Virus record (IMG/VR): IMGVR_UViG_2734482570_000004
Length of the DNA: 4,675 nt
DNA from: a virus
Lineage: Duplodnaviria; Heunggongvirae; Uroviricota; Caudoviricetes
Reading direction: 5' to 3' (one strand)
Shown: positions 3,936 to 4,223 of the stretch, one piece after another
How positions within the stretch are numbered: position 1 is the first letter of the stretch
Layout of the letters: each line of letters opens with the position of its first letter
The notes under the pieces: generated by a model
What the model was told of the DNA's origin: nothing
Databases searched by the model: none
What the model saw: the letters and a program-made list of their open reading frames with translations, nothing else
Program-made: the position numbers and the translations under genes

Positions 3936-4223
3936 ATGAAAATCGAAGAATTGCGTGAAATTTTTAGTGAAAATGGCCTCTATGCTGTGCGCGTTGAGAA
4001 TGGAGCGATTGTCAGCCATTGCCGCATTAGATGTTTGCAATCTCAACAAAGGAAGAGCGGTGCTGTGTTATTTTATTTTTGTAATGGACTTCTGACGGAC
4101 GGTTTTATTTTGCGTGAGGACGAATTTGTCACATCATTACGGGTTTTGAAAGAGATTGGTTTTAAGGCTGGTTTTCTGCTTTTGCTGAAGAATAAACTCA
4201 TCTACAATCTTGAGCAGGATTGA
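3936..4223 (+). CDS. Small hypothetical protein (95 aa), AT-rich, moron-like
   Basis: AAGGA at 3923..3927 with an 8-nt spacer to the ATG. GC content is visibly lower (about 40%) than the surrounding genes (about 50%). It has its own candidate promoter and is preceded by a terminator. No recognisable motif. Confidence 0.45.
   Translation: MKIEELREIFSENGLYAVRVENGAIVSHCRIRCLQSQQRKSGAVLFYFCNGLLTDGFILREDEFVTSLRVLKEIGFKAGFLLLLKNKLIYNLEQD

Follow-up and report, generated by a model that had tools for sequence, protein, structure and literature searches.

The closest described relative of the gene considered here is rem, carried by the Qin prophage of Escherichia coli K-12. Ectopic K-12 Rem raised the expression of a DicA-repressed dicBp-lacZ fusion 165-fold, and caused a filamentation and growth arrest that depended on dicB and dicF and were abolished by the deletion of Qin (Ragunathan et al., J Bacteriol 2023, PMC10448788). 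A passage of the same paper describes DicB, which is induced by Rem, as protective against some phage infections. DicA is a short repressor (135 amino acids) without a RecA-dependent cleavage site, and has been grouped with the Gifsy repressors (PMC3121763), which are inactivated by small antirepressors through the formation of A2B2 complexes (Lemire et al., PLoS Genet 2011, PMC3121763). PMC10448788 and PMC11430063 both describe the inducing signal of Rem as unknown, and no later paper on Rem turned up in the literature. The present analysis concerns an open reading frame (ORF) of 95 codons at 3936..4223 (+ strand) of a 4,675-base stretch of phage DNA (IMG/VR record IMGVR_UViG_2734482570_000004), hereafter the window, which belongs to the early-right region of a lambdoid prophage of the Rac/Qin type. 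The ORF is very probably an allele of rem, a small antirepressor gene of the Rac/Qin-type lambdoid prophages of Escherichia and Shigella.

The ORF begins with ATG and comprises a conserved Rem body (codons 1-80) and an out-of-frame tail (codons 81-95, LLLLKNKLIYNLEQD). The encoded protein was 68% identical to K-12 Rem (b1561, Qin) over 80 amino acids (BLASTP, E-value 2e-34), and 64% identical to the product of a gene of the Rac 442/2 prophage annotated as 'rem: prophage antirepressor'; no paper was found behind the 2019 GenBank label 'prophage antirepressor' (MN652886). PHROG 340 was matched by the ORF (E-value 6e-20), by K-12 Rem and by the short Rem of Rac-SA53, and all 77 database matches carried the precomputed accession PF27490.1. 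The local Pfam copy, which predates PF27490, gave no meaningful match for the ORF, nor did PADLOC or NCBIfam, and no defence or toxin model was matched in any of them; a sequence search of the PDB with the ORF protein returned nothing below an E-value of 1. Every residue of the family's core motif, G42..L45..G56-F57-x-L59..E63-F64-V65-T66-S67..A78-G79, was present in the window protein.

The Rem family was narrow. It comprised 77 clusters among 5.8 billion proteins, with Escherichia and Shigella as the only source names, and a search with the Rem-family profile recovered 58 cluster representatives, mostly small proteins, among 1.84 billion. Among species-representative genomes the family occurred only in Escherichia and Shigella, bar one apparent binning contaminant. 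This was a scaffold (L008, JAGZPX010000007.1) in a metagenome-assembled genome of Veillonella parvula that carried an E. coli-type rem locus and a DicA-like gene, and it is almost certainly a contaminant. Within E. coli, homologues were found in 3,017 of 5,426 complete genomes (56%), in some of them in up to five copies, and rem was also carried by the functional temperate phages mEp460_ev081, HannyBb and PhiR42_1, where it occupied the regulatory position ahead of Q. The order hok - rem - DUF1367/YdfU - Q was recurrent, with hok upstream of rem in 68 of 87 loci and a DUF1367-type or YdfU-type gene downstream.

The median ratio of non-synonymous to synonymous substitution (dN/dS) was 0.24 (codons 1-80; 863 pairs from 45 unique coding sequences), and decreased to 0.11 between the window allele and its nearest intact allele. 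Judged from these substitution patterns, rem homologues are under purifying selection and the ORF is a real gene. The GC (guanine plus cytosine) content of the ORF was 0.396, compared with 0.496 for the non-N part of the window and 0.46-0.55 for the neighbouring genes. Low GC was a property of the whole family (mean 0.404, range 0.36-0.43; 45 unique homologous coding sequences).

Comparison of family members indicates that Rem is built of two modules, an N-terminal one (residues 1 to ~26) and a C-terminal core. The first was common to 57-59-residue 'short Rem' proteins, whose C-terminus differs, and the core also occurred in proteins of 56-99 amino acids without the N-terminal module. The short Rem genes (L003 4424-4600, L013 and P0067, the last on at least 1,000 contigs) matched rem from the promoter through the leader to codon ~24 and then continued into an unrelated C-terminus, and their products did not contain the GFxLRxDEFVTSL core. 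By their distribution, the leader and the N-terminal module act as one cassette to which different C-terminal parts can be joined. The AlphaFold model (pLDDT 67) comprised two helices with five strands between them, and a disordered tail; core residues 1-80 are predicted to form one helix, a five-stranded beta-meander and one helix.

Upstream of the ORF, an intrinsic terminator was found at 3762..3806 (+), with its stem at 3762-3801 (an 8-bp GC-rich outer stem enclosing an inner hairpin) and a run of six U to 3806. Its minimum free energy was -24.7 kcal/mol (z = -5.1), and none of 200 shuffled sequences folded as well. A simple scanner missed it because the loop holds the inner hairpin. The outer stem was kept in K-12 and in Rac, in both with a short loop. 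This terminator is the 3' end of the hok messenger RNA (mRNA) and isolates rem from upstream transcription.

It was followed by a sigma-70-like promoter at 3827..3854 (+), with the -35 hexamer TTGATT (3827-3832), a 16-bp spacer and the -10 hexamer TAGAAT (3849-3854). TTGATT-16-TAGAAT was the sole promoter match of the scanner in the region, where 1.2 matches would be expected by chance. Across 27 distinct upstream contexts, the -10 hexamer hardly varied at all (mean pairwise difference 0.012), and TTGnnn occurred 16 or 18 bp upstream of it in 26 of the 27, which were otherwise unrelated; the spacer differed at 50% of its positions (mean pairwise difference 0.50). The promoter is convincing because the -10 and the TTG were kept while the spacer and the upstream sequences were unrelated. 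The Shine-Dalgarno sequence GGAAGGA (3921..3927, +) lay 8 nucleotides before the ATG and was kept in nearly all alleles.

The sequence features described in the original prediction, which had been made from the letters alone, were all found in place: an ORF of 95 codons starting with ATG, a GC content below that of the surrounding genes, a terminator and a promoter ahead of it, and a reasonable ribosome-binding site. The substitution pattern that it had named as refuting the gene, with synonymous and non-synonymous changes equally frequent, was not seen, as synonymous changes greatly exceeded non-synonymous ones.

Compared with K-12 Rem, the window protein was homologous over the whole conserved body, fell in the same PHROG and was encoded at the same position just after hok, behind the same -10 hexamer and a near-identical leader. 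K-12 Qin and the prophage of the closest complete record, E. coli NZ_CP065613, both encoded a DicA-type repressor of 135 amino acids in the same kind of prophage. Differences were a 4-residue insertion (QSQQ) in the window form, which belongs to an 86-amino acid subtype, the 15-residue frameshifted tail of the window allele, the downstream neighbour (DUF1367 in the window and ydfU in K-12), and the -35 and spacer sequence (a spacer of 16 bp in the window and 18 bp in K-12). RefSeq names the K-12 subtype 'protein Rem' and the 86-amino acid subtype 'hypothetical protein'.

The Salmonella antirepressors GfoA, GftA and GfhA of the Gifsy prophages and FsoA of Fels-1 (PMC3121763) are likewise small (73 amino acids in GftA), inactivate repressors of the GfoR/GtgR/DicA/RacR group, which are short and non-cleavable, and can act in trans on non-cognate repressors. 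Their genes, like rem, lie outside the immunity region; they follow the replication genes and a palindrome that resembles a terminator. In Gifsy-2 the order was replication genes, palindrome, LexA box, dinI, gftA (11464-11685) and a DUF1367 homologue of 200 amino acids (irsA); the latter was 54% identical to the DUF1367 product of the window, and rem occupied the same slot as gftA. Unlike the Gifsy genes, rem had no LexA box and had a conserved leader instead, and the window sequence and its ORF list contained no dinI-like ORF between the terminator and rem. Similarity in sequence was not significant when the Rem profile was aligned by HHalign with the GftA sequence (probability 0.35%, E-value 0.17) or with a GftA profile (probability 0.23%, E-value 0.27). 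GftA fell in PHROG 4847 and matched PHROG 340 only below threshold (E-value 0.23), and the published link between Rem and the Gifsy antirepressors ran through a PSI-BLAST intermediate (PMC10448788). By analogy, Rem would be Gifsy-like in action and genomic position, but not a demonstrated member of the Gifsy sequence family. Tum of coliphage 186 is likewise an antirepressor, which by binding the cognate repressor keeps it off the operator; it differs in its length (146 amino acids), its DinI-like second half and its control by LexA (PMC3121763).

Native Rem proteins are 82-86 amino acids long, and the 95 residues of the window form resulted from a 1-nucleotide deletion near the 3' end. In DNA alignments with K-12 Qin and Rac 442/2, the deletion mapped to 4171..4172 (+; GCTGG-TTTTCTGC in the window, GCTGGCTTTTCTGC in relatives); the window reads GCTGGTTTTCTGC where relatives have GCTGGCTTTTCTGC, and codon 79 has lost its third base, a C. 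Residues G79 and F80 were kept and the frame was shifted from codon 81 on, and because of the C missing after 4171 the conserved tail SAFAEE was replaced by 15 unrelated residues. The ancestral stop codon of the 86-amino acid form was still present (TAA, 4193..4195, +; reading S A F A E E stop in the +1 frame from 4175). It was followed by a conserved 7-bp hairpin (4213..4232, +) with the stop of the shifted frame in its loop; the pairing was kept in Rac 442/2 by a two-sided change (GCAGGA/TCCTGC versus GCAGGG/CCCTGC). As it has no U-tract, this hairpin is probably not an efficient terminator, and rem may therefore be co-transcribed with the DUF1367-Q genes.

The normal tail, (S/L)(A/T)F followed by two or three mostly acidic residues, was present, at the normal length of 82-86 amino acids, in 43 of the 45 unique long-form coding sequences. 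The window allele had an intact twin (P0003, 86 amino acids, ending ...KAGFSAFAEE). The exact 95-residue protein (Q32IS6_SHIDS) was found on at least 999 contigs, from Shigella sonnei, S. flexneri, S. dysenteriae and S. boydii as well as some E. coli. The allele is common in Shigella, and the breadth of its occurrence marks it as real rather than a read error. The identical frameshift allele was also found in the NZ_CP065613 prophage, which otherwise looked complete.

The proposed action of Rem combines the K-12 genetics with the layout of the locus. The hok terminator would stop transcription from upstream, and rem would be transcribed from its own sigma-70 promoter, whose conservation suggests that a lysogen could produce Rem even under repression of the early operons. 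Rem would then inactivate a short non-cleavable DicA-type repressor of 135 amino acids, as shown genetically for K-12 Rem, and the early promoters would be derepressed; direct binding of the repressor would be expected by analogy with the A2B2 complexes of the Gifsy antirepressors. The NZ_CP065613 prophage had such a repressor gene ~4.6 kb upstream of rem, whose product was 62% identical to K-12 DicA, and 34 fetched loci contained DicA-like genes. In the fetched loci, one and the same Rem type was accompanied by different immunity types of DicA, which had conserved C-terminal halves. Action in trans is plausible for the Rem family, given the Gifsy precedent and the association of one Rem type with several DicA types. 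The window copy, if still active, would be confined to action in trans, against DicA-type repressors encoded by co-resident prophages, because the piece around it is decayed and without an immunity region.

Several points weigh against this explanation. The action of Rem on DicA was attributed to an 'unknown mechanism' in PMC11430063, and direct binding is a presumption even in K-12. Function would be extrapolated to the subtype and allele of the window from K-12 Rem, the protein that was tested, at an identity of 68%. The window contained no repressor gene, as an IS600 cuts the prophage at position 86, and a search for covariation of Rem types with DicA immunity types found none. Of the residues lost by the frameshift, A82 and F83 were at least 90% conserved within the Escherichia subfamily; the frameshift may therefore inactivate the protein.

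This last point leads to the alternative that survives best, namely that the window rem is a dead remnant: the frameshift would have destroyed its activity, and the gene would be a pseudogene drifting in a decaying Shigella-type fragment, where the loss of an inducer may even have been selected as stabilising a cryptic prophage. This is a real possibility, judged somewhat short of an even chance. The swap of a tail conserved in the Escherichia subfamily by a single deletion favours it, and so does the state of the surroundings. Both ends of the window (1-86 and 4569-4675) were IS600 ends on the minus strand. As the same two pieces lay 1,264 bp apart in locus L014, where they form one IS600, the 4.48-kb prophage piece lies between two co-oriented IS600 copies, and its immunity region is lost. 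The left copy removed the 5' end of a ydaU-like gene, which compared with NZ_CP065613 also had two extra A in an A-run near 292-299 and a 10-bp deletion near 430, and the right copy truncated the DUF1367 gene at 4568/4569, after codon 102. Bounded by IS600 and with both its ydaU-like and its DUF1367 gene damaged, the piece around the window rem is decaying. Truncated rem alleles of 41 (L011) and 20 (L012) amino acids were also found.

In the K-12-type rem lineage (P0044/P0045, one cluster of which had 102 member sequences), an independent loss of frame by 1 nucleotide, a few codons upstream of the site in the window allele, led to the same alternative frame and a similar tail (...LAFLLFQKNKLIYNLARG). 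It could reflect recurrent inactivation, as the remnant explanation would have it, or a tolerated alternative tail; that recurrent shifts into this frame give a functional alternative tail is a more speculative idea, weaker than the interpretation of the leader given below. Against a dead gene, the conserved core (residues 1-80) was untouched, and in the wider family the conserved block (GFxLRxDEFVTSL...AG) stopped at G79, beyond which tails varied freely. The allele was identical in many genomes and across several Shigella species, its ORF was free of secondary lesions, and it was also present in the NZ_CP065613 prophage, whose neighbouring genes were intact.

The original prediction had proposed a moron with a product serving the host, for lysogenic conversion, superinfection exclusion, toxicity or anti-phage defence, and had considered the protein possibly undescribed. 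Part of the moron description stood, as rem has its own promoter after a terminator, an odd (low) GC content and varied neighbourhoods, although an own terminator downstream is doubtful since the hairpin there has no U-tract. A host-serving product unrelated to phage regulation is very improbable. Overproduction of Rem is toxic in K-12, and an indirect exclusion is conceivable through the Rem-induced DicB, which the cited passage credits with protection against some phages, but the toxicity was wholly dependent on dicB and dicF. Because it vanishes with the deletion of Qin, Rem is a regulator and not a toxin. The absence of any defence or toxin match in PADLOC, Pfam and NCBIfam and the retention of rem by functional temperate phages, in the regulatory slot before Q, also stand against cargo. 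Since ectopic Rem relieves DicA repression, rem is assigned to the control of lysis and lysogeny of the phage and not to host benefit; the homologue regulates the repressor of its own prophage. Nor is the protein new, given its identity to K-12 Rem, its membership of PHROG 340 and a function published in 2023.

That the ORF is untranslated, with a non-coding RNA or DNA element as the conserved entity and the reading frame incidental, hardly deserves credence: the leader and first 26 codons are more conserved than coding alone predicts (synonymous divergence, pS, 0.16 in the first 26 codons and 0.37 in codons 27-80), but the dN/dS of 0.24 over 45 unique sequences and the 82-86-codon frame kept in almost all of them speak for translation, and because K-12 Rem works from a heterologous ribosome-binding site and promoter, the protein is the active agent.

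The predicted leader of rem (~75 nucleotides, 3861..3935, +; start placed from the -10) had a core (3862-3897) that was nearly invariant. The mean pairwise difference was 0.049 in the leader core and 0.136 at the third positions of codons 1-26, and compared with K-12-type loci the leader was ~90% identical and the coding sequence ~75%. The leader was specific to rem (3,618 leader places versus 3,571 gene places). That it is more conserved than the coding sequence is, on these alignments, the new observation of the present analysis.

An upstream open reading frame (uORF) encoding MDPEQGRAIYLEGF before its stop (3889..3933, +) began with an invariant ATG behind the Shine-Dalgarno-like GGGAGAAGAGGG and ended 2 nucleotides before the rem ATG. 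Its length was 3 codons in K-12 and 8 in Rac 442/2, and in other alleles it was out of frame or fused in frame to rem; a conserved leader peptide was rejected, as length, frame and peptide differ among alleles. A hairpin, CCCC-GAACA-GGGG (3894..3906, +), kept its stem across 31 distinct aligned leaders while its loop varied in length and sequence; in the RNAalifold consensus it had 4 pairs, 4 one-sided changes and one break. A reading of it as a lambda boxB/nut-like element was dropped because the loop ranged from 3 to 6 nucleotides among alleles. Across 13 leaders, RNAalifold yielded a weak consensus (covariation term -0.05, one compensatory pair), and the single-sequence fold of the leader had a z of -1.85. 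Rfam returned no family in 3587-4675 at E-values up to 1. No LexA box (CTG-N10-CAG) was present in 3687-3960, the nearest sequence being CTT-N10-CAG at 3862, with a GC-rich centre. The leader contained 6 GGA triplets in 75 nucleotides, a marginal CsrA-like enrichment that counts as a lead at most (P ~0.03, mononucleotide shuffles), and the small RNA DicF paired with it no better than with shuffled sequences.

The leader does not change with immunity type, which argues that it cannot be the operator of a variable repressor. Carried almost invariant on the rem mRNA, it is probably the site where the signal that induces Rem acts, as its conservation suggests. That the leader (3862-3935, possibly with the first ~26 codons) is an undescribed cis-regulatory element sensing a non-SOS trigger of Rem is suggested tentatively and with considerable doubt; the candidates are an RNA switch, a leader that works through a uORF or a bound protein, and an operator for a host factor.

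Among the other features of the window, the ydaU-like replication gene remnant (87-763, pseudogene) was followed by the DnaC-like ydaV (770-1516) and a DUF977 gene (1531-1953). An ORF at 1954-2367, between the DUF977 gene and QueH, had a weak match to a TFIIB-type zinc ribbon (E-value 2e-4, under the Pfam cut-off); RefSeq annotates only a shorter form of it (start at 2010), as hypothetical. A full-length epoxyqueuosine reductase gene (QueH, 2515-3201; Pfam E-value 2e-65) was found inside the prophage early region, preceded by a 147-nucleotide gap. It was present in the NZ_CP065613 relative and absent from Rac 442/2, and may be a genuine cargo gene.

The rem unit was preceded by a hok/sok locus (type I toxin-antitoxin), most of which, including sok and the 5' part of hok, was hidden by a run of 361 masked bases (N; 3226-3586). 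The readable part of hok consisted of the last 32 codons (3587..3686, +), which matched annotated hokD and hok genes and whose translation VTALVTRKDLCEVRIRTGQTEVAVFVDYESRK matched HokD of NZ_CP065613, and of the 3' structures (a hairpin at 3695-3722 and the terminator at 3762-3806). Downstream of rem, the 5' half of the DUF1367 (IrsA-type) gene (4262-4568, +) covered profile positions 1-102 of 198 (Pfam DUF1367, E-value 1e-46), and the match to IS600 began at 4569. The NZ_CP065613 record was 99.5-99.9% identical to the window, with the same gene order. Its prophage continued upstream with the 135-amino acid helix-turn-helix repressor, a Cro/CI-family gene at the position of DicC and YdaT, and downstream with DUF1364, a Q-like antiterminator, transfer RNAs and lysis genes.

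As the rem gene family is already known and its function was assigned in 2023, the ORF carries little weight as a cargo or defence candidate. The antirepressor annotation could be extended to the 86-amino acid subtype, including the Shigella allele, among the rem homologues of 3,017 of 5,426 complete E. coli genomes, because RefSeq applies the name 'protein Rem' to the K-12 subtype only. The conserved promoter and LexA-box-free leader offer a small and concrete target in the search for the signal that induces prophages with non-cleavable repressors in E. coli and Shigella. If the cis-regulatory interpretation of the leader were true, this short sequence would control the induction of DicA-type prophages in over half of E. 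coli genomes.

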